This document shows positions 5,107-64,000 of a stretch of 64,000 nt of DNA, in pieces. This stretch comes from a virus. The stretch lies in the IMG/VR virus record IMGVR_UViG_3300042387_002391; one strand, written 5' to 3'. Made by a program: the position numbers and the translations under genes. The notes below the pieces were generated by a model that worked only from the letters and a program-made list of their open reading frames with translations, searched no databases and had not been told where the DNA came from. Within the stretch, counting starts at the first letter, position 1. Each line of letters begins with the position of its first letter.

Positions 5107-5286
5107 ATGTACTCAAAACAAAATGAAATTGAAGCAATTGTAGAAGATTTAATCGAAAATACTATCGTAGAACTATTTGCAGACAGCTTTTCTTCGAAAA
5201 AAGAGTGTGAAATTGCTTTGGAAGTATTAATTTCTAAGCTTGAAGACTTCGATATAAAGACTTTTAAGGAATTTTTTGATAATTAA
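5107..5286 (+). CDS. Small acidic hypothetical protein (59 aa)
   Basis: Manual translation MYSKQNEIEAIVEDLIENT...FKEFFDN; GATAATTA motif upstream. Confidence 0.65.
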   Translation: MYSKQNEIEAIVEDLIENTIVELFADSFSSKKECEIALEVLISKLEDFDIKTFKEFFDN

Positions 5287-5294
5287 GATTAGCA

Positions 5295-6998
5295 ATGTCT
5301 AATAGATTTCACAACAAGTTTCATAGATTTAACCATCATTCTGCTGGAAGTCCGGATCCGAAGTATCCAGATGCTGGTTATGATCCAATTGCTTCTTTTG
5401 ATTCTCCCTTTCAAGGAGAGTTTTATTCAGAAGGTGATATTATTACTACACAAAATCTTTCTGCTGGAATTGATCTGACCGTTGATAGAAACGCTTTAAT
5501 AAGAAATAACTTGGTTGTTGGTTATGATGCAAACGTCAGAAACGACTTGTTTGTTGATAATAATTTTACTGTTTCCGGAAGTTCTTCAAATATTGATACT
5601 CTAGTTTATATTACTTCCGCAGTAGACATTTATAATAGTGGCGTTGGACCCGCTTTAAGAGTAAATCAGCTAAGCAGCGAACAAATTGTACACTTCGTAA
5701 ATGACGGAGTTTCTTCATTTATCGTTGATGCAAGAATTAACTCTCCAGGCTTTGTTGGTATTAACACAGAAACTCCTAGTGAAAGACTAACCGTAGTTGG
5801 AAATATAAGCGCTGTTGGAAGCACACATATTACCGAAAATTTGTTTGTTTCTGGAAATGCTTTTATTCAGGGTAATCTAGCAGTAGATTCTAATGTATTT
5901 TTTGTAGATGTATCAGCAAATAAAGTTGGTATTAATACTCAAACTCCTAACGAAGCCCTAACAATTGTTGGAAATATAAGCGCTGTCGGAAATACAATTA
6001 CAACAGCAAATGTTTATGTTTCTGGAAATCAACAAATTGATGGAACGCTTCAAGTCGGAACAGTGCCAACAGGAGCAACTGACAACGTAATTACGCTTAG
6101 CGGAGACCTGTTTGAGACTCGTTTAATTAATTCTAGAGTTTGGGATACGACTGCAGAATTTCTTAGTGCAAGAAATCTTACTGCAAATTATCTTCCGAGG
6201 TATACCAGTTTAAATACTTTAGAAAATTCTACGATTAGAGATCAATTAACAAGCTTGATTATTGCAAATGACGTCATTATTCAAGGAACACTAAATGCCC
6301 TCGGAAGTGCTTCGTTTGTTAATACAATATTCACAACAACTTCTTCGATTAGTGTAGTAAATCTCGGCGAAGGTCCTGCTTTATATGTTTTCCAGGCATC
6401 AGGTCCGCATGACGTTGCTTCCTTTTATGACGGAGACGGCATTGAGGTATTGCACGTCGGAAATGCTCAACCAAGCGGCTTAGGCAGAATTGGCATAAAT
6501 ACAGGAGAACCAAATGTTGAGTTAACAGTAAACGGGTCAATATCTGCTACTGGAAATGTTGACATTACAGGCAGATATTTGAGTGGCGGTCAAGATATTT
6601 CTCTAATTGTTTCCAACATAGTTTTAAACAGTGATTTGTACAACATGGTTCCTCTTTCTGGCGGAAGCTTGACTGGAATCATTAAACCCAATACGGTTTT
6701 GATAAATCCTTCAGCTGTAACAGAACTACCGCTTACAGGAAACGACATTGAATTTCTCGGACAAATTTCCGATATTACGATTACATCTTTTCTAAGCGGA
6801 ACAAGAGGAGTCACTTATACGCTAACAAACAAAGAAACGTACTCCGTAACAATAAGTTCTTCTCCAACAATCTACGTAAGAGGAGGCAATAACTGGCTGA
6901 GTAATGCTTCAAATTATGTCTATTCTTCAATCGTTCTTTTGTCCGGATACTCTTGCTCGCTTAGAGCTGATTCAAGCGATGTCGTTTCAGTTTGGTAA
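5295..6998 (+). CDS. Tail fibre-like virion protein with beta-rich repeats
   Basis: Three GINTxxPxxxLTxxGxISA repeats; Ser/Thr/Asn/Gly rich. Confidence 0.65.
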   Translation: MSNRFHNKFHRFNHHSAGSPDPKYPDAGYDPIASFDSPFQGEFYSEGDIITTQNLSAGIDLTVDRNALIRNNLVVGYDANVRNDLFVDNNFTVSGSSSNIDTLVYITSAVDIYNSGVGPALRVNQLSSEQIVHFVNDGVSSFIVDARINSPGFVGINTETPSERLTVVGNISAVGSTHITENLFVSGNAFIQGNLAVDSNVFFVDVSANKVGINTQTPNEALTIVGNISAVGNTITTANVYVSGNQQIDGTLQVGTVPTGATDNVITLSGDLFETRLINSRVWDTTAEFLSARNLTANYLPRYTSLNTLENSTIRDQLTSLIIANDVIIQGTLNALGSASFVNTIFTTTSSISVVNLGEGPALYVFQASGPHDVASFYDGDGIEVLHVGNAQPSGLGRIGINTGEPNVELTVNGSISATGNVDITGRYLSGGQDISLIVSNIVLNSDLYNMVPLSGGSLTGIIKPNTVLINPSAVTELPLTGNDIEFLGQISDITITSFLSGTRGVTYTLTNKETYSVTISSSPTIYVRGGNNWLSNASNYVYSSIVLLSGYSCSLRADSSDVVSVW

Positions 6999-36734: not shown

Positions 36735-38099
36735 CTAATGTATAATTTTAGTCAAGCTTTTTTCGTTTGGAGGGATTACTTGCTCCTCCATGATCACTTC
36801 GTTTTCAGTCCAGTAAAATCCTGTCCTGTTAATTTGTTGATCAAACACCCATAACGGGACCTCACAGAGGCAGAGTCTTAGATTGGCAGCAGCATTCATG
36901 TCTGCATCGGCTGTGTGACCACAGCTCCTACAGAGGAATGTCTTTCCTTTTCTATTCTTCTTGTTAACATAACCGCAACTACTACATCTCTGAGAACGAA
37001 ACTTATTAGGAACTTCAGTGAATGTAAAACCTTCACTTTCACTGAGTCTTTCTAGCTTCTCTTTTATCAGAGTGTATTTCCATCTCTTCAAATAATTTGA
37101 AGTATTCTTTCCTTTTCTTATTTGAAAAATCTTTTCTAGTCTTACTTCCTTTACGTTGTTAAAAGTAAGTTCATTTAAGCACCAGTTAACATAGTTCTTT
37201 CGTTCAGCTTGTGCTCTCTTATACCCTTTAGAATCTGGCTTTCTTCTACTGAGCGTCTTCTGAATGTCCGTTAAGTCTTTTCCGTGCTTGTTCTTTTTGG
37301 TGAATTGACCATCAGACATTGAAAGGCAAGTCGTGACGCCTTGATCACATCCGACTACTTCTCCTTCTGTTTTAACGGAGCATTCAATTTCCCATATCAA
37401 ATCCGCTTCCTTGTTGCTCAGAAGAGCTATTGCACTAATCTTTCTCTTGGCACCTTTCTTTAAAAGCTTCTTTGAGTGCTTATGATAATTTAAAGGAACT
37501 GTTAGAGTTCCATGATCTCCTGCTAAAGAAAGTCTTATGAACTCATCAAAAGAGAAGCTCTTGTTGTTTTTGTTCTGTTTAAAAACCTTTACTACGTCTG
37601 GTCTTGAAATTGTTATTTTAAAATCTTTAGGAAGAGAAGGCTTGACTAAGGAGTTCTTATTAACTTTGCTTTGCAGGATCTTTATGCTCTGTTGCTCTTT
37701 GGAAGAAGCTTCTCCTCTACTTAGTTTCTTTTGCAGCTTCTTTAGTTGATACACTCTTTTAGAGTGCTTTGTTGTAGCTCCTTTCAAGATTCCGAGAGCC
37801 TGAAGACCTGCCGTTTGTCTCAGCATTCCTCCTAAAGAGGTTTGAAATGTTTCTAAAAAAGTGCTGTCGAAAAACTTTGGTGCCTCTAAAGAGCCTTTAG
37901 AAGGATAATAATCAGCATATCCTCGATCCCAAACATGATCTATCAATTTAGAAACCAAATTTTTGTATTCAGAAATAAAGAGGTTCAGAGAGTCTTGTTT
38001 TCCTTTGTTTGGAAAGATCTTATGACGAGAAGTTCTATAAGAGACCTTGGTCTTCTGATCTAGCTCTTTTTCAGAGTTTATTTCTAAAATGTATTCCAT
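36735..38099 (-). CDS. tnpB: TnpB-family RNA-guided nuclease
   Basis: RuvC triad VVGCDQG, VRLEKI, ADADMNAAANL; zinc ribbon SQRCSSCG...CRSCG. Confidence 0.92.
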   Translation of the reverse strand: MEYILEINSEKELDQKTKVSYRTSRHKIFPNKGKQDSLNLFISEYKNLVSKLIDHVWDRGYADYYPSKGSLEAPKFFDSTFLETFQTSLGGMLRQTAGLQALGILKGATTKHSKRVYQLKKLQKKLSRGEASSKEQQSIKILQSKVNKNSLVKPSLPKDFKITISRPDVVKVFKQNKNNKSFSFDEFIRLSLAGDHGTLTVPLNYHKHSKKLLKKGAKRKISAIALLSNKEADLIWEIECSVKTEGEVVGCDQGVTTCLSMSDGQFTKKNKHGKDLTDIQKTLSRRKPDSKGYKRAQAERKNYVNWCLNELTFNNVKEVRLEKIFQIRKGKNTSNYLKRWKYTLIKEKLERLSESEGFTFTEVPNKFRSQRCSSCGYVNKKNRKGKTFLCRSCGHTADADMNAAANLRLCLCEVPLWVFDQQINRTGFYWTENEVIMEEQVIPPNEKSLTKIIH

Positions 38100-38109
38100 A
38101 AGTAATTTT

Positions 38110-56424: not shown

Positions 56425-56991
56425 TTAACGAGTACGACGACGAGTATTTGCGACCGTAATAGGTCTGCGAATGTTTGTTTTGCGCCAGAATTGATAAGCA
56501 AGAGTTACAGGAACTGTTACAATCGTTCCAGAATCAGCAACGCTATAAGCAGTATCAGCAACGGACACGATATAAGCACCATACATAGTGTACTCGCTGA
56601 TTGTTGTCATGTCTTTGTCAAATAATTGCATGATCAATACAGAAGAATCAGAAGGAGTGTTGTAGTCGCCTGTCGAAGTATTATCATTGAATGTCTGGAA
56701 GGTATTTTGTTCAAGAACATTGCGGATGTCATAGCGCTGATCACAGCGGAATGTTACAGAATATCCAGTAGAGCCAGGATAAGTGGCTGTGCCAGGAATG
56801 TTGAACGGAAGGCCCATATAAGGAACTGTTTGGTTTGTGATGGATCTGCCAGGCAATGAAGCAGTTTCAACATAAACAAGATCGTCTTCTGTAAATCCAG
56901 TATTTCCGAAACGGACTAGACGAAATTGAAATTGACGAGCGAAGTCGCGTGTTTGAGCTACTCTGTAGAATGATGTAATGTTTTGAGCCAT
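56425..56991 (-). CDS. gp19: Tail tube protein
   Basis: FARQFQF, ASLPG, YMG....PG, VTLAYQFW; follows the tail sheath gene. Confidence 0.85.
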   Translation of the reverse strand: MAQNITSFYRVAQTRDFARQFQFRLVRFGNTGFTEDDLVYVETASLPGRSITNQTVPYMGLPFNIPGTATYPGSTGYSVTFRCDQRYDIRNVLEQNTFQTFNDNTSTGDYNTPSDSSVLIMQLFDKDMTTISEYTMYGAYIVSVADTAYSVADSGTIVTVPVTLAYQFWRKTNIRRPITVANTRRRTR

Positions 56992-56996
56992 GATTT

Positions 56997-57004
56997 TACT
57001 TATC
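56997..57004 (-). promoter_or_regulatory. T4-like late promoter
   Basis: GATAAGTA-N5-ATG; related motif at 4063, 7013, 48988, 53429, 56400 and 61126. Confidence 0.7.
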
Positions 57005-57125: not shown

Positions 57126-58988
57126 ATGAATAATATGAATTTAGATATAGAACTAGTAAAGCAACTAAGAACAAAGCATCCAAAACATTACTGCAAAATT
57201 ATTAAAAACCATTATCAAGAAATTTATAAAGCAATTGAAGATTTTGCACAGAATGTGTATTGCGATTACCAAATGAATTTTCCACAAAAAATATATCACT
57301 GGATTCACCAGCTTCACAAAATTCCACTTTGTCCGATTAAGAATGTACTTTTAAAATTTTATAATCATAAGTTTGAATACAGAAAGTTTAGCGAAAGAGG
57401 ATTGTTCACAGAAGAGTTTGCAAAAAATAGAATGAAGGGAAGAACAAAATTTCCTAATGCCAAAGAAAGAATGGGTGATATTGATGCAAATTTTCGATAC
57501 GAAGAAAATTATAAGGAACAAGCTTTTAAGCAAGTCAGCAAAATGTTTGACGAAATACAAAACATTGGGGGAGTTTGTACCGCAATTAAAACCAAAAAGA
57601 ATGCTAAACTGTATTCTTTTGTTAAAAATTTATATCCAACAGCAGAAACGTTTTCAGAGTGTTTGTTTTTGCTTTTAAACAACATGTCTGAACCACCTTT
57701 GTGTCCATTTTCCAAGCTTCCTTTGCCTTTTGTAAATTTTAAGCAAGGTTATAAAGACACTCACCCTGCTGCTGTTTGCGATTTAAAGAGACACAAAAGG
57801 CAAGAAAAGCTTCAAAATCTCGAAATTTTGTCTAAAGAAGAAACAATTGTACAACTTCAAATGATGATAGACGAGCTCAGAAGAAACAATATTTCGATCA
57901 ATAATTTGAAGCAGTCTGCGGTTAAAAGATGTCCTAGTTTAGCAATATCGATCGAACAGCACACAAAAACATATACAACTCTTACCAAAAAATGGTCAGA
58001 AAGAGCTTATTTGCTTTTGCATGAAGGCGAATCGAGAGATTTCTCGAAATGCAGATTTTCTTCTTTTGATGAAGGCTACTATGACACATTCGTTAACCCT
58101 AACAGTTCGATTGGAGAAGAAAATCTTGCGAGTTGGATCGAAAGTCTGAGTGTCAGCAAAATAAGGAGGCACGAAAGGCTTTTAAACGGGATGGAGGCAG
58201 ACATCTATGCCGAGAATGTTAACTTAGCGATAGAATATCACGGCGAATATTATCATAATTTTGAATTTAGAGGCACAGACTATCACAAGCGAAAAGCAGA
58301 TGCTGCTTTAACCAAAAATATAAATTTGCTTCAAATTTTTGAAAGCGAATGGTATAATAAGCAAGAAATAGTAAAGTCTATTATTAAATCTGAACTGGGA
58401 ATATTCTCTTTCAAAGTTGATGCAGAATCGTGCTTAGTTAAGCAACTTGACTCTAAAACAAAAAATGAATTTTTAGTAAAAAACCATATTCAGGGAATCG
58501 ACCGTTCGATTATTGCTTTTGGCCTTTATTTCGATGACGAATTAGTCTCTTGTATGACATTCGGAAGAGGATGTAAACAAAAGGACAATCGAATTGAATT
58601 AGTTAAATTTTGCAATAAACTAGACACTGCAGTAATTGGAGGAGCAAGTAAACTGATAAATGCATTCGCAAAGCAGTTTAAGCCTGCAAAAATTTTTACA
58701 TTTTCAGACAGAAGATTTGCAAATAGTAGTAATTTTTACGAAGATTTGGGTTTTAAAAAATGTAACCAAACAATACCGAATTATTTTTACTTCAAATCTA
58801 GCATGCCTCAATACATGAAGTTAATCCACCATTGCAATTTCGCGAAACATTTGCTGCCTCGTAAATTAAAACAGTATGACGCAAATCAAACAGAGTATGA
58901 AAATATGAAGCAGAACGGTTACTTTAAAATTTATGATGCAGGAAGCTTCAGATATGAACTAACTTTTAAACAACCTACCAATGTTTAG
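57126..58988 (+). CDS. Hef-like free-standing homing endonuclease
   Basis: EADIY...AIEYHGEYYH...LLQIFESEW nuclease core; NHIQG, MTFG, GGASKL, SDRRF, YDAG C-terminal domain. Confidence 0.8.
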   Translation: MNNMNLDIELVKQLRTKHPKHYCKIIKNHYQEIYKAIEDFAQNVYCDYQMNFPQKIYHWIHQLHKIPLCPIKNVLLKFYNHKFEYRKFSERGLFTEEFAKNRMKGRTKFPNAKERMGDIDANFRYEENYKEQAFKQVSKMFDEIQNIGGVCTAIKTKKNAKLYSFVKNLYPTAETFSECLFLLLNNMSEPPLCPFSKLPLPFVNFKQGYKDTHPAAVCDLKRHKRQEKLQNLEILSKEETIVQLQMMIDELRRNNISINNLKQSAVKRCPSLAISIEQHTKTYTTLTKKWSERAYLLLHEGESRDFSKCRFSSFDEGYYDTFVNPNSSIGEENLASWIESLSVSKIRRHERLLNGMEADIYAENVNLAIEYHGEYYHNFEFRGTDYHKRKADAALTKNINLLQIFESEWYNKQEIVKSIIKSELGIFSFKVDAESCLVKQLDSKTKNEFLVKNHIQGIDRSIIAFGLYFDDELVSCMTFGRGCKQKDNRIELVKFCNKLDTAVIGGASKLINAFAKQFKPAKIFTFSDRRFANSSNFYEDLGFKKCNQTIPNYFYFKSSMPQYMKLIHHCNFAKHLLPRKLKQYDANQTEYENMKQNGYFKIYDAGSFRYELTFKQPTNV

Positions 58989-59016: not shown

Positions 59017-61119
59017 TTAAATAATTTCTTGGAAGTTTTGGCTCGTGCGGGTTGCAATAAAGTCAATCAAAATAAATTCCGAACTCCGTACAGCCTTCAA
59101 ATAAATGCTAACCAAAAGTTCGTTATTATCGATGACATCAGGTGTGTTAATTCTTTCGTCGCAGACAATTTCAAAGTCAAAAAGTCCTTCTGTGTTCTTT
59201 GCAAACTCAAAAATTGGAGTAATAACACTCTTCAGACGAGTCCTTGTAAATTCGGTATTTGGTTCAAACACAAAATACTTCAAGGTTCTTTGAGTTGCTC
59301 TTTCGAGAGTTAGGAACAATCTGCGAACATTGATGCGATCAAAAGCAGTTGGTTTTGTTTGAAGGGTTTTTTGACCCATTACAGCAAATCCGTCTCCACT
59401 AAAGAACACAACAGGGTTTACAGAAATTTCATAAAGTCTGTCGCGTTGTTTTTGATTTGGATTGAAAGCAATATCGAGAGCATTGAAAGTGCCTCTGTTG
59501 AGACCTGCTGGAGCAAACCATGGTTGAGAGACCGCATCATTGCGAGCAAATGTTGCAGCAGCATAACCTGAAAACGGTACCCACATTCTGCGACCTGTAA
59601 AGATATCAGAAACTTTGACCCAGTTACCATACATTGCAGCATAGTTGCTTTCAGAGCTAGCAATCTCTTTGAGGGGATTGTAAATGTCTTGGGTAAATGT
59701 TTTTCCTTCAGAATCAATTACTTTTGAGTCTCTGCCCAATACAAAAATAGGACGAAGAGGATCGATAATTGCCATGCAATCTTTGCGAGTATTTTGAGCA
59801 AAGTTGACAAGTGTGTCAGAAACTGCGCGGAAGTCATCAGTCAAGGCAGAAACATCGCTGACGAATGTTTCATCATTGAAGGAGCTAATTCCGAGCGTAT
59901 TTGTCATTGCAAATACTGTAGAAAGACCGGCATCAACAATAACATCAACAATAGTGTTTTCAATGCTTTCGAGAGGACGAAGAGCTTTGTCAAGCTTTCC
60001 TGGAACGCTTCCGATAACTTTCGAAACGTCTTGTGAGCGGCTGTCGGGAGTAAAGACGCCAAGAGGGAAGAGAGCTTTGGCTCCGTCAGTAACAGTAACG
60101 CGAGAGGTCGGAAGAGTGGAGTTAACAGCCCATTGATAGCTCTTAGAGATTGCTGGGTTGATATACATCTTAATTGTCGGAGAGGCATCGTTGATATTAT
60201 CTCCAATGAATGCGTTTGAAAGAATGCCACCAGTTGGGCTTACTTGGCGTCTGTTATAATCAAATGAGCCGAGGTACTTTTCAGTTGTTGCGAGGGTTAA
60301 CATTGTTGCGTCTGAAGTAGAACGACGAACTTTATAAACACCGAGGGAAAGATGATCTTGATATTCATCAGTTTCGAAACCGATGAAGCCAACCTTTTCG
60401 AGAGATTCAGAAATGCTATACAAGCCTCTGTTGCTGTCTGCAAGAGTTGCTGAAAGAGCAAAGTCGATGCGATCTGTCGTAATCGAACCAAATGTATCAG
60501 AAGCAGTAAGAGTCGTTAGAGCAAGAACCGATTCGAAGTTTGGTGAGCTGGTGGAAACCGCAAGGTTGTCTGCAAAGCCAACATAGTAGCCTTCTGCATA
60601 TTCATTGACAACTGTTTGGAGGTCATTAAGAATGAAGAAGCCGGCGTTAATTTCGACATCACCTGTAAGTTTAGCAGAAAGAACGGAAGAACCGGTGCCA
60701 ACCCAATCAAAGTTGCCTTCAACGAGCTTTGTGTATTGCTCTTGGCTCATGCTTGCCGCAATTGGCGCACCAATCTCCCATTCGCCAGTTGCTGAAGTCA
60801 TTGGATAGAATAGAGCTCCAAAAGAATTGGAATAAGCAGAACCAGTGTTTGCTCCGTATGGTAAACGAACAGTGTTCAGAACGCCAGGAGAATTGAGAAC
60901 TTCTTTACAGCTGTAGTAAAAGTACATTTCAGCTGGTGTCGAAGGAATGCCGTAAATTGATTCAAATTCGCTTGTTGAAGTAATCAACAAAGGCTCGCTG
61001 ACAGGACCTTGGGGAGCAAAGCCAGGAACAACGATTGTCGTGCCTGCTTGAATTTGTGTACGAAGTGAAAGATCTTTTTCAGTAATCTGAACGCCGGGTG
61101 AGTTAATGATTCTTGCCAT
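59017..61119 (-). CDS. gp18: Tail sheath protein
   Basis: SPGVQITEKDLS start; PWFAPAGLNRG, RDRLY, GQKTL, AFDRINVRRLF, FEPN. Confidence 0.95.
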   Translation of the reverse strand: MARIINSPGVQITEKDLSLRTQIQAGTTIVVPGFAPQGPVSEPLLITSTSEFESIYGIPSTPAEMYFYYSCKEVLNSPGVLNTVRLPYGANTGSAYSNSFGALFYPMTSATGEWEIGAPIAASMSQEQYTKLVEGNFDWVGTGSSVLSAKLTGDVEINAGFFILNDLQTVVNEYAEGYYVGFADNLAVSTSSPNFESVLALTTLTASDTFGSITTDRIDFALSATLADSNRGLYSISESLEKVGFIGFETDEYQDHLSLGVYKVRRSTSDATMLTLATTEKYLGSFDYNRRQVSPTGGILSNAFIGDNINDASPTIKMYINPAISKSYQWAVNSTLPTSRVTVTDGAKALFPLGVFTPDSRSQDVSKVIGSVPGKLDKALRPLESIENTIVDVIVDAGLSTVFAMTNTLGISSFNDETFVSDVSALTDDFRAVSDTLVNFAQNTRKDCMAIIDPLRPIFVLGRDSKVIDSEGKTFTQDIYNPLKEIASSESNYAAMYGNWVKVSDIFTGRRMWVPFSGYAAATFARNDAVSQPWFAPAGLNRGTFNALDIAFNPNQKQRDRLYEISVNPVVFFSGDGFAVMGQKTLQTKPTAFDRINVRRLFLTLERATQRTLKYFVFEPNTEFTRTRLKSVITPIFEFAKNTEGLFDFEIVCDERINTPDVIDNNELLVSIYLKAVRSSEFILIDFIATRTSQNFQEII

Positions 61120-61191: not shown

Positions 61192-61812
61192 TTATTTAAT
61201 GGCGTTCAGATTATTTTTCTTCTTTCTAATCATATTAAATTGATTAAATTGAAAATCCGCAGTAGTTTCAAGAATTTCTCCGTCTCTATAAGAATAGTTA
61301 ATTCCTCTCAAATTTGTAATAAAAGCATTGTGATAAACAAATTCGACAACAGTTTCATTATATTCATTCAGTGCAAGAATTGAAAAAGTGGTTTGATATT
61401 CATTAACCATTCCGCTTTCCATGCTTGCTGCAGCAGTCATCAAAGCTCCTGGTGTTCCATCATAAATACTCAAGCGCGGATCATTCAAAACAGCAAGCCA
61501 TCTCCACAACACATAATAATTTTTATAATCATTATCAACAACAAAGTTAACAGAAATTGGGGGATGGTTTGGACGATGGTGTGAAGAAAAGTTCAGTGTC
61601 TGACCGACCCAATCTACTTCCACGGCTGGTACAGTAATGTCTGGCACAATTGTTCCGTGAACACTAATTTGCACAGAATCAATATCTAAGTCTGGATCGG
61701 TTTTGCTCATCTCTCTTAAAATCTTCGGAAGAGTTAAGACAAGAATAAACTTATCCTTCGAAGCAACGTTCAAAGGAGACTGGAGTGTTGGATTTTGGCA
61801 AATTTCAGACAT
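61192..61812 (-). CDS. gp3-like tail completion protein (tube-like fold)
   Basis: VPDITVP, VNFVVDNDYKNY..LWRWL, ADFQF. Confidence 0.65.
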   Translation of the reverse strand: MSEICQNPTLQSPLNVASKDKFILVLTLPKILREMSKTDPDLDIDSVQISVHGTIVPDITVPAVEVDWVGQTLNFSSHHRPNHPPISVNFVVDNDYKNYYVLWRWLAVLNDPRLSIYDGTPGALMTAAASMESGMVNEYQTTFSILALNEYNETVVEFVYHNAFITNLRGINYSYRDGEILETTADFQFNQFNMIRKKKNNLNAIK

Positions 61813-63775
61813 CTTGGTTGTAATATGTGTATCCCATTTCTAGGAGCGATTCTTCATCTAAATCATACTTATCAAGAGTTTCAAGTTCTTTCTGAGTAAT
61901 TCCGAGAGCTGGATATGCAAGATTTTCTTCAGCAGCTGGTTTCGGAACAACTGAAGGATTTTTACTAAGATCTTTCAAATCATAATTTTCTGTAAAGTTT
62001 TCCCAGTAACCATTCGGAACAATTTTTAAAGGATGGTTCTGTAAGTCAAAATCTACAATCTGAAAGTATTGTTCGACTATTTCGGTTTTGAGAATGAATA
62101 AAGCCCAAGTAAGAGCCATAATTCTATCGTCGAAGAATTTATCTGTTCTTTTTTTATAAACGCCATTTGGATGTTTCACAAATGTTTCAAACTCAGAAAT
62201 TGTTTGCGGGTCGTTTATTTGTACGCATTGCAAATGATTTACCCAATATCTCATATTTCCAATTCCGTCACTTCTGATATTTGTATGAGAAAGTACTCCA
62301 AGATTTCTTGTTGTATTGTATTTGTCTGAAGTAGATATTTTTGAATATGCAACAATTTTTTCGTAATTGTGATGATAATGCAGAGCATCAATAACTTGGG
62401 CACCGCAATTGTTTCTTTCAATCAGTATTGGAGGCACACCCCAAGATTGTCCGATTGTTAGCAGTTTATTTGCAAAGTGGTATGGTTCAATAACTGCTGA
62501 ACCGTATACAGCCACTTGCTGAATGTTTTGAAGATCCGTTACATCAAGAATTTGAGCAACAGATGCTGCTCTTCCAATACCTTCTCCAACGTCTACTCCG
62601 ATTACATAAAGTTTATTCTTATCGGGATATTCAAAGACGCTGTAGTCACCTTCTTCTGAAGTCCAAATCGGAGGCTTTTTAGTTTGTTTAAATCTTTCTA
62701 TGAGAAGTGCTCCAACTGCTGAGGTGGAGTCGTCAAGGAAGCAATTATGAACTAGCACGCCGTTTGCATAGTAACAAGAACCATCAACACTTATGAGATC
62801 ATATACCCATCTTTTTTGTTTGATCTTTTTTATGTTAGTAATCTTTTGCAGTTCTCCTCGCTCTCCTTCTAAAAAATCTCCTACGCTTAGCGAATCAGCT
62901 ATCTTGAGTTCTCCTTCTACGATAAACGGATGCTTTAGTGACGCAACTATTTTTGTTCTGTCTGTTGTAAACTCTAAAACATTTTTCTTGAGTCTCTGAA
63001 CTCCTTTAAATGAACGAAGTCCCCAAGGTGTAGACACTTTTAAATTTTTGTCGTTAATAGCTACATTTTCTGAGAGCAATTCTTTAAAAAGATCGTATAA
63101 GTCTCGGATTTTATAAAATTTTGAATCTCCTTCGTTGCTTATGTAAACTTGTGACGAACCTCCTACGCAATTGTTAAATTCTTGCAAGAACTTTTCTTCT
63201 GATCCGAGAGCAGCAATCATTGTCTCTTTCCATGCTTGATCTCTTCCAGGAACTTCCCACCAATCAATTCTTTCTGCTTTCCAAGGCGGATTTAAGTTCT
63301 GTTCAGCCTGTGAATATATTTCGTAAAATTTATTTCCGACTCCCTGTGGCGTACTCACCAGTAATATTTTAGACTTTTTGCCAGACGAAATTGTAGGAAT
63401 AACCGATGACCAAAATTCTTCAAGCAAGTGTGTATTGTGATGGAGAACTCCGTTTGAGTAAAACATCCGACTAGGCACATCAACAATATCATACACAAAA
63501 TCTTTGTTTTTCAGCTTTTCTTTTGCAATAACTTTATCGAGACCACTCTTTGTTTGAATAATTCTATTCTTGCAATTTCTAACAAGCAAACTATCGCCCT
63601 TTTTGTCTATTAGTGAATGGTTTGCTGACGCTTTAAATGTTAAGCCAGATCTCGTTGTAATTTTATAAATGGACTTTGGTCGGTATTTGGCAACACCTTT
63701 AAAAACTTCCCATCCATTAGGCGTTTCTATTTTTATGCCTTTTGTATTTGGTTTAAACTCAATTAAATCCTTCAT
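61805..63775 (-). CDS. terL: Terminase large subunit, C-terminal part (IntC + ATPase C-half + mini-intein + nuclease)
   Basis: PTISSG..SKILLVSTPQG, IDWWEVPGRD, QEF, GVDVGEG, IERNN, DDRIMAL. Confidence 0.92.
   Translation of the reverse strand: MKDLIEFKPNTKGIKIETPNGWEVFKGVAKYRPKSIYKITTRSGLTFKASANHSLIDKKGDSLLVRNCKNRIIQTKSGLDKVIAKEKLKNKDFVYDIVDVPSRMFYSNGVLHHNTHLLEEFWSSVIPTISSGKKSKILLVSTPQGVGNKFYEIYSQAEQNLNPPWKAERIDWWEVPGRDQAWKETMIAALGSEEKFLQEFNNCVGGSSQVYISNEGDSKFYKIRDLYDLFKELLSENVAINDKNLKVSTPWGLRSFKGVQRLKKNVLEFTTDRTKIVASLKHPFIVEGELKIADSLSVGDFLEGERGELQKITNIKKIKQKRWVYDLISVDGSCYYANGVLVHNCFLDDSTSAVGALLIERFKQTKKPPIWTSEEGDYSVFEYPDKNKLYVIGVDVGEGIGRAASVAQILDVTDLQNIQQVAVYGSAVIEPYHFANKLLTIGQSWGVPPILIERNNCGAQVIDALHYHHNYEKIVAYSKISTSDKYNTTRNLGVLSHTNIRSDGIGNMRYWVNHLQCVQINDPQTISEFETFVKHPNGVYKKRTDKFFDDRIMALTWALFILKTEIVEQYFQIVDFDLQNHPLKIVPNGYWENFTENYDLKDLSKNPSVVPKPAAEENLAYPALGITQKELETLDKYDLDEESLLEMGYTYYNQDV
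62744..63169 (-). mobile_element. Contiguous mini-intein (142 aa, no endonuclease)
   Basis: QEFNN/CVGGSS...SLKHPF...VYDL...YYANGVLVHN/CFLD. Confidence 0.9.
63434..63775 (-). mobile_element. C-fragment (114 aa) of an atypically split intein, Thr at +1
   Basis: MKDLIEFKPNTKGIKIETPNGW...SANH...VYDIV...FYSNGVLHHN/T. Confidence 0.88.
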
Positions 63776-64000
63776 AATTGATTATATAACTCATCTATGG
63801 TTGAAGAAACAATTTGATTTTCAGAGTTCATCAGATTAATTTTTGAGTCTCCTTGGAGACACTCTATGAACGCACATTCGTCAACCATGACGCAATTATG
63901 CGCTTGCAAACCGTTTGCAAAAAAGTGATGGTGCTCTGTCTCAATTACATCAAAAACTTCTGTTAGTTTATTCTTAGAAATTTCTTCAATCGAAATTATT
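63772..64000 (-). CDS. terL: Terminase large subunit, N-terminal part (start outside the window)
   Basis: Manual translation ...FFANGLQAHN CVMVDECAFIE CLQGDSKINL...ELYNQL*; Walker B VMVDE. Confidence 0.88.
   Translation of the reverse strand, partial: IISIEEISKNKLTEVFDVIETEHHHFFANGLQAHNCVMVDECAFIECLQGDSKINLMNSENQIVSSTIDELYNQL
63775..63861 (-). mobile_element. N-fragment (29 aa) of the atypically split intein
   Basis: CLQGDSKINLMNSENQIVSSTIDELYNQL, then TGA overlapping the IntC ATG. Confidence 0.88.
63895..64000 (-). mobile_element. C-terminal end of a third intein
   Basis: IISIEEI...VFDVIETEHHHFFANGLQAHN/C. Confidence 0.85.

Follow-up and report, generated by a model that had tools for sequence, protein, structure and literature searches.

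Organization of the terminase locus

The stretch of viral DNA analyzed here, taken from IMG/VR record IMGVR_UViG_3300042387_002391 (64,000 nt; hereafter the window, whose coordinates are used throughout), carries at one end part of a gene for a gp17-type large terminase (TerL) that is interrupted by sequences with the features of inteins. The feature is visible as two open reading frames (ORFs) on the minus strand, the strand on which all of the sequence quoted in a first-pass annotation of this DNA was located. The upstream ORF runs in from the window edge and is joined to the downstream ORF by an overlap of stop and start codons. Read in the coding direction, the two ORFs present in turn the end of a cis mini-intein (intein b), a micro-extein with the Walker B motif, the N-terminal fragment (IntN) and the C-terminal fragment (IntC) of a split intein (intein c), an extein of the ATPase subdomain, a second cis mini-intein (intein d), and the nuclease extein (Table 1). 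The first-pass annotation, made from the letters alone, had described an 11-residue extein containing Walker B between two inteins, a third intein after 88 further extein residues, and no endonuclease in the two inteins that are fully visible; all of these points were borne out. The micro-extein was located at 63894-63862, the extein at 63433-63170 is exactly 88 amino acids (aa) long, and the 142-143 aa of the two inteins leave no space for an endonuclease domain. Position 62741, where that annotation had begun its finding, corresponds to the codon for the +1 Cys of the third intein. The layout likewise agrees with its count of at least three inteins, of which at least one is predicted to splice in trans. 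In addition, three Cys residues are found within 12 residues at the micro-extein: the Cys+1 of intein b, the Cys of DEC, and the Cys1 of the next intein.

Table 1. Positions of the terminase gene parts and of neighboring features in the window
Feature	Position	Strand	Description
Upstream TerL ORF	63999..63772	-	Runs off the window edge; 75 aa visible; TGA stop
Intein b, C-terminal 35 aa	63895..63999	-	Cis mini-intein cut by the window edge; ends ...FFANGLQAHN
Micro-extein CVMVDECAFIE	63862..63894	-	11 aa: Cys+1 of intein b, Walker B strand, catalytic Glu
IntN of split intein c	63775..63861	-	29 aa, CLQGD...ELYNQL; TGA stop at 63772-63774
ATGA stop/start overlap	63772..63775	-	Joins the two ORFs; no gene in between; also in L002
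Downstream TerL ORF	63775..61805	-	656 aa; start within the ATGA overlap
IntC of split intein c	63434..63775	-	114 aa, ends ...SNGVLHHN; block B SANH; terminal HN; +1 residue Thr
88-aa extein THLLEEF...FLQEFNN	63170..63433	-	ATPase subdomain; includes the stretch aligned to the T4 gp17 TTT C-motif
Cis mini-intein d	62744..63169	-	142 aa, CVGGSS...ANGVLVHN; Cys1, SLKH, HN, Cys+1
C-terminal extein, nuclease domain	61805..62743	-	312 aa (CFLDDSTS..., 61808-62743) plus stop codon
Tail-tube-like gene (phrog_45)	61192..61812	-	Downstream neighbor, between TerL and sheath
Tail sheath	59017-61119		After the tube-like gene; T4-type context
Free-standing homing endonuclease	57126-58988	+	620 aa; phrog_3339, E 1e-82; phrog_559 HNH, E 1e-70
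Second tail-tube-like paralogue (phrog_45)	56428-57003	-	Past the endonuclease insert

Identity of the host protein

The micro-extein, the 88-aa extein, and the 312-aa extein were joined by script to give an in silico spliced product of 411 aa, which shared 83% identity with P0009, an intein-free protein, in an alignment with 0 gaps, and 74% identity with the TerL of locus L003, likewise free of inteins. A spliced product that failed to align continuously with intein-free terminases had been named in the first-pass annotation as the outcome that would speak against it; when this was checked, the alignment was found to be free of gaps. The L003 TerL in turn aligned to the T4 gp17 structures 3EZK and 3CPE over both domains (E ~1e-52), and the T4 gp17 numbering of all sites given here was counted along the alignment through this protein. 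By this numbering the micro-extein corresponds to M251-I260 of T4 gp17, with residues 251-255 as the Walker B strand, E256 as the catalytic Glu, and four more residues after it, and it aligns to AIDETAFIE or CLAIDEAAFIE in intein-free TerLs, while the 312-aa extein was aligned to the gp17 nuclease domain through L003. The Walker B motif with the catalytic Glu, the C-motif region, and the C-terminal nuclease domain were thus found in gp17 order; Walker A lies outside the window and was read only in relatives. The assignment as a large terminase is supported by this continuity with intein-free terminases and collinearity with gp17. A second TerL was not found within the 64-kb window, and no cultured phage was found to have a TerL more than 33% identical.

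Four insertion sites, designated a to d, were placed on the same scale: (i) site a, in Walker A, between K166 and T167; (ii) site b, just before Walker B, between A250 and M251; (iii) site c, directly past Walker B and E256, at approximately I260 and P261; and (iv) site d, between A354 and A355, a few residues before the hinge of the ATPase and nuclease domains.

Identity of the inserts as inteins

The inserts are in frame, are absent from orthologues, and have flanks that together form an uninterrupted host protein, as is required of inteins. A Pfam match to Intein_splicing was obtained (E 1.3e-9), and the best PDB match of the IntC of intein c was CatC (6DSL; E 1.9e-8, residues 6-113), which was also the best match of the 142-aa intein d (E 3.5e-10). 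The 40 aa of micro-extein plus IntN gave no PDB sequence match, this query being too short. All catalytic residues of class 1 inteins were present in intein c (C1, SANH, HN, and T+1) and intein d (C1, SLKH, HN, and C+1), and the HN and C+1 were present at the end of intein b, the part of it that is visible. When the inteins of sites a to d were compared, they aligned over their full length at 22-31% identity and kept Cys1, the block-B His, and the His-Asn in all cases; the +1 residues by site were Ser (a), Cys (b), Thr (c), and Cys (d). Judged by sequence, the inteins of the four sites form one family, that of the "atypical TerL" type (GOS-TerL, AceL-TerL, and Cat). When the remaining genes of the window were searched with a hidden Markov model of this family, no additional intein was revealed.

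The HINT fold was modeled on P0121, a 99%-identical relative described below, the window's own inteins being modeled only as the IntC/IntN complex. The AlphaFold model of P0121 had a mean predicted confidence (pLDDT) of 77 with confident HINT domains, and its top Foldseek matches were all inteins (6VGV, 6QAZ, 8UBS, and others). Residues 350-363 of this model, which cover the micro-extein, had a pLDDT below 50 and no secondary structure; their predicted disorder fits a Walker B strand that would be out of place before splicing.

Division of intein c between two genes

Intein c was found to be divided at the same point in many relatives. The IntC start, MKDL..F/YKPN, opens proteins P0001 (97% identical), P0002 (96%), and P0004 (81%) as well as the ORF of locus L002, and both the start and the stop of the split are shared by P0001-P0004 and L002. 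Counting more diverged versions, approximately 21 protein clusters open with the IntC start, while P0121, P0122, and P0123 terminate at the same IntN. The ATGA overlap is kept in L002 despite a DNA identity of only ~70% around it, and 63772-63775 is crossed without an indel by contigs of three independent lake or freshwater sequencing runs (X2, X4, and X9). An assembly frameshift at the split was considered as a candidate and rejected, as the three runs carry no indel and the split is conserved.

A contiguous intein occupies site c in P0007, P0100, and P0120, and the IntN of the window aligned to the P0007 intein's N-terminal part. Compared with the contiguous form, which has extra loop residues, the break falls in the loop past the first strand-helix unit. 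A short IntN (29 aa) and a long IntC (114 aa) are present as separate ORFs in a gp17-like terminase. In structural modeling, a complex of the IntC (residues 1-130) with the micro-extein/IntN, in which the IntN packs onto the IntC, scored 0.77 compared with 0.02 for the best control, a mark that 51 of 78 solved complexes attained, as did 2 of 108 mismatched pairs; three runs agreed in at least 86% of the contacts, and the pLDDT of the partner was at least 73. This result may reflect only likeness to the solved complex 6DSL, and so points to likeness rather than to binding.

Extension beyond the window edge

The visible 75 aa of the upstream ORF were found again in a longer protein, P0121 (388 aa, 99% identical, from a contig of 6,922 nt, a length also given for the contig of P0001). 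This protein consists, in order, of a 114-aa IntC ending SNGILSHN/S at Walker A, an 84-aa extein, a contiguous intein b of 150 aa, the micro-extein CVMVDECAFIE, and the 29-aa IntN of intein c. As the Walker-A intein is contiguous in P0005, comparison of the two indicates that the split of intein a falls in the loop in which intein c is also split. Going by these relatives, the lineage most likely encodes its TerL as three polypeptides with four mini-inteins, of which a and c are split and b and d are in cis; by analogy with P0009, the mature TerL would be ~710 aa. An exact 60-mer from the window end had no match in the viral contig set, and the sole contig returned by a scan of metagenome contigs for the upstream sequence was unrelated (352 kb, 25% identity).

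Occupancy of the four sites among relatives

Among the recovered proteins, each of the sites a to d was seen both empty and occupied, and the occupied sites took three forms: (i) a mini-intein, (ii) an endonuclease-bearing intein, and (iii) a split intein. LAGLIDADG-bearing inteins were found at site a in P0006, P0028, and P0116. P0005 has the Walker-A intein only, sites b and c are filled singly or together across relatives, P0002 (96% identical) is without intein d, and L003, L012, and P0009 have none of the sites filled. Loci L003 and L012 are syntenic with the window, with TerL, the tube-like gene, and the sheath in the same order. The architecture of the window is retained in relatives of 76-97% identity. 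The "intein hotspot" of the first-pass annotation is supported, with four sites used independently, intein-free alleles in close relatives, and one intein that is polymorphic within lake samples (see below).

Inteins on both sides of Walker B were found in at least 17 clusters, down to ~32% identity, with micro-exteins of 4-14 aa, in a sample that is biased because the queries contained inteins. The micro-extein is 11 aa long in P0007, P0122, P0123, P0132, P0134, and L002; 13-14 aa in P0136 (a cluster of 139 sequences, with a longest contig of 181 kb) and P0237; 8 aa in P0225, P0251, P0257, and P0331; 6 aa in P0135, P0220, P0224, and P0239; and 4 aa (CLDE) in P0248. In the shortest of them (CLDE of P0248; CVFVDE or CLIVDE of P0220, P0135, and others), the second intein follows directly after the catalytic Glu.

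Two of the related loci were observed to be divided further. In L002 (89% identical in the best segment; 2-406 and 439-2136), intein b is split too, a 36-aa IntN being followed by a stop. The next ORF, of 565 aa, consists of a ~410-aa domain, the IntC of intein b, the 11-aa Walker B extein, and the IntN of intein c, such that this polypeptide would supply just 11 residues to the mature terminase. Beyond the intein, neither PHROG nor Pfam gave a match for the ~410-aa domain, and its likeness to the free-standing endonuclease of the window is marginal (E 0.001). In L006 (4012-7546), a cis mini-intein lies at Walker A of the TerL, and site d, which holds a contiguous mini-intein in the window, is fractured into a 31-aa IntN, a 340-aa HNH-like ORF, and an ORF starting with an IntC (HN/C).

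Selection and polymorphism

The rates of nonsynonymous (dN) and synonymous (dS) substitution between the window and L002 were estimated by the Nei-Gojobori method. For the IntC of intein c, dN was 0.21 with dS saturated, which places dN/dS well below 1. The other segments likewise had low ratios, including (i) the 88-aa extein (dN 0.204, dS 1.31, dN/dS 0.16); (ii) intein d (dN 0.024, dS 0.14, dN/dS 0.17); and (iii) the nuclease extein (dN 0.017, dS 0.28, dN/dS 0.06). Purifying selection acts on the inteins, which would be anticipated if TerL needs them to splice in order to function. Intein d had the lowest dS of any segment, compared with 1.31 in the extein upstream of it, which fits a recent spread. 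The window and L002 also form a mosaic, with 69-75% DNA identity upstream and 94-95% from intein d to the gene end; this jump in identity at intein d (the 62744 region of the window; 2742 of L002) places the recombination boundary at the intein edge.

Alleles lacking intein d were recovered from sequencing runs. A contig of run X4 joins 62740 to 63170 with TGT between, and a contig of run X3 joins 62722 to 63176 with 27 letters between, in each case with a net loss of exactly 426 nt, the length of intein d. The +1 codon of the X4 contig without intein d is Thr, as in P0002. The intein-bearing allele also occurs in X3, and loose ends in X4 place intein d beside a different extein sequence. Intein d is thus a presence/absence polymorphism in natural populations, and it looks to have spread recently although it is free of an endonuclease.

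Proposed assembly of the terminase and alternative explanations

Overall, we consider it likely that the locus encodes a functional gp17-type TerL of an uncultured freshwater T4-like myovirus, in which mini-inteins of one family have colonized conserved sites of the ATPase domain. The inteins are best interpreted as passengers of a selfish kind, by now free of endonucleases, with their splicing kept by selection on TerL, and not as a regulatory device; the sequences best support splicing that would be obligatory and is not evidently regulatory. Three polypeptides would be assembled into TerL through four reactions, two of trans-splicing and two of cis-splicing. Translation of the IntN and IntC of intein c would be coupled by the ATGA overlap, the IntN (29 aa) would fold onto the IntC (114 aa) to complete the HINT domain, and Cys1 and Thr+1 of this intein would perform standard class-1 splicing, while inteins b and d would be excised in cis. 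With Walker A interrupted, Walker B and the catalytic Glu on an 11-aa extein of their own, and the C-motif on the next extein, the ATPase motifs would be scattered over the exteins such that the ATPase core may form only once inteins a, b, and c have all been spliced. Splicing itself, its order, and its translational coupling are steps that we infer. Weighing against this interpretation are that (i) the picture of four inteins and three genes rests on the 99%-identical P0121, the upstream part of the gene being outside the window; (ii) none of the inteins has an endonuclease, which leaves the recent spread of intein d unexplained, a free-standing endonuclease or plain recombination being guesses; and (iii) inteins flanking Walker B in many lineages could reflect selection, not only conserved homing sites.

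This last point leads to the checkpoint that the first-pass annotation had set beside a hotspot, by which conditional splicing (through redox, temperature, or stoichiometry) would keep the packaging ATPase-nuclease inactive until late infection, with the Cys cluster as the lock. The inteins do separate all three ATPase motifs, the bracketing of Walker B recurs in at least 17 diverged clusters, three Cys residues are gathered within 12 residues, and conditional splicing of other ATPase inteins has been discussed (PMC4760082, PMC5050341). However, close relatives work without these inteins, one of which is polymorphic within the same lake samples, and all combinations of sites are occupied, as independent invasions of conserved targets would give; as the inteins are dispensable in close relatives and occupancy is combinatorial, we regard a checkpoint as unlikely. 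We are similarly doubtful of a version in which the bracketing of Walker B is kept as a safety lock, namely, a multi-input AND gate on packaging made of three polypeptides and four splicing steps, in which the two mutually orthogonal, atypically split inteins and the micro-extein cysteines could impose a dependence on redox or order. A terminase that is decaying or nonfunctional, with the phage defective or another terminase doing the work, would account for a gene in pieces; yet the catalytic intein residues and the terminase motifs are all intact, exteins and inteins are under strong purifying selection, relatives preserve the architecture, the tail tube and sheath neighbors are normal, and no other TerL lies in the 64 kb, which together make decay very improbable. 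A pseudogene was rejected on the basis of the purifying selection. The split itself may be bypassed, with a ribosomal frameshift at the ATGA or an assembly error leaving intein c as one chain that splices in cis. A one-base shift at the overlap would indeed fuse the halves, and the contiguous intein of P0007, P0100, and P0120 provides a precedent for the fused form. Counter to this, no X_XXY_YYZ-type slippery heptamer precedes the stop, the junction is the same in three independent runs, the stop and start persist in L002 and in ~21 clusters, and the split form is without the extra loop residues of the contiguous form, such that a bypass has hardly any likelihood. A functional TerL colonized by passenger inteins remains our preferred explanation, and the locus alone shows no regulatory role.

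Comparison with known systems

AceL-TerL, one of the inteins of the same type, was reportedly described by Thiel et al. in 2014. Together with GOS-TerL and the consensus Cat it is an established tool (PMC11766414), and the published sizes of IntN and IntC are 25 and 104 aa for AceL-TerL and 37 and 115 aa for GOS-TerL, all with Cys+1 (PMC11766414). A fractured gp17-like terminase with an unusual split point, in which a 122-aa C-part holds all motifs except N1, was reported by Dassa et al. 2009 (PMC2677866). The split intein of the window resembles GOS-TerL, AceL-TerL, and Cat in (i) its host, these too coming from gp17-like myovirus large terminases of metagenomes; (ii) its split after motif N1, with 29 and 114 aa falling in the ranges of 25-37 aa (IntN) and 104-122 aa (IntC); and (iii) sequence homology, the CatC match extending to both the IntC of intein c and intein d. 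It differs from them in having Thr+1 where the published inteins have Cys+1 (PMC11766414), in halves that overlap at ATGA with no endonuclease gene between, and in adjoining another intein at a distance of 11 aa. The split intein of the window appears to be a homologue of the published TerL inteins at another site, not an allele of them. Their counterpart is probably intein d, to judge from its Cys+1, its better match to Cat, and the splitting of its site with an HNH-like gene in L006.

The locus also shares with the fractured genes of Dassa et al. 2009 a phage DNA-metabolism gene broken by a split intein, and the classic layout of such genes is seen in relatives at other sites (site d of L006 and site b of L002). 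Between the halves of intein c, however, there is a 4-base overlap instead of a free-standing endonuclease gene, and intein c looks like a later stage of a fractured gene from which the endonuclease has been lost.

TerL is likewise a preferred host in mycobacteriophages, where, according to the text of Kelley et al. 2016 (PMC5050341), the intein sites are at the P-loop, Walker B, and C-motif, all in the ATPase domain, and splicing is required before the active site and the oligomer form. The mycobacteriophage inteins in that text are contiguous and occupy each site in different phages and terminase families, whereas in the lineage of the window several sites are filled in one protein and two inteins are split. 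Clusters of several inteins at the ATPase motifs of a single essential enzyme of nucleotide handling are known from the Trichodesmium ribonucleotide reductase and dnaE and from haloarchaeal MCM, which has four intein sites around Walker A and B (PMC10643990, PMC4760082). The Trichodesmium reductase, as Liu et al. 2003 is cited in PMC2874743, has four inteins, and in that citation the split dnaE has several, a single protein there again combining cis with split inteins. For two split inteins in one natural protein of three polypeptides, no description was found, nor was a report found of two inteins separated by as few as 11 extein residues, or by 4 as in relatives, in both cases in literature searched without most subscription journals. 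An engineered parallel is the three-piece ligation by tandem trans-splicing with orthogonal split inteins (Shi & Muir 2005, as cited in PMC11766414), whose middle fragment, going by that citation, has an IntC at one end and a different IntN at the other, like the middle ORF of this lineage; that system is man-made, while the arrangement in the lineage is natural and its middle piece has a cis intein in addition. Overall, the parts are of known kinds, and their combination appears to be undescribed.

Atypically split TerL inteins are prized in protein semisynthesis, their N-half being short enough for chemical synthesis. The lineage may provide a natural protein whose three polypeptides are ligated by two different split inteins of the short-N kind, and inteins a and c would be a ready-made orthogonal pair if they do not cross-react. 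Intein c adds a split intein whose terminase site is apparently new, whose nucleophile at +1 is Thr, and whose halves have no gene between them. Inteins b and c would be nature's example of two inteins that work with nothing but a buried catalytic beta-strand as extein between them, at a spacing of only 11 residues (4 in relatives). Furthermore, the presence and absence of an endonuclease-less mini-intein in the same lakes bears on how such elements still move.

Genomic and environmental context

The 620-aa homing endonuclease (Table 1) was observed on the strand opposite to the terminase, wedged between the sheath and a tube gene ~3 kb from the terminase, and it is a candidate for a trans-acting mobilizer of the endonuclease-less inteins. 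A 457-aa ORF at 36738-38108 on the minus strand, within a T4-like segment, matched the phage transposase families phrog_12300 (E 2e-24) and phrog_506 (E 5e-19). The N-termini of related TerLs (P0005, P0009, and L003 at 5203-5400) were found to have extensions of ~100-140 aa with repeated (K/R)GRPKG motifs that resemble AT-hooks. Among the sequencing runs in which the locus was found no RNA run is listed, which bears on expression in neither direction; those that contain its DNA are lake-water and freshwater metagenomes from 17 studies.

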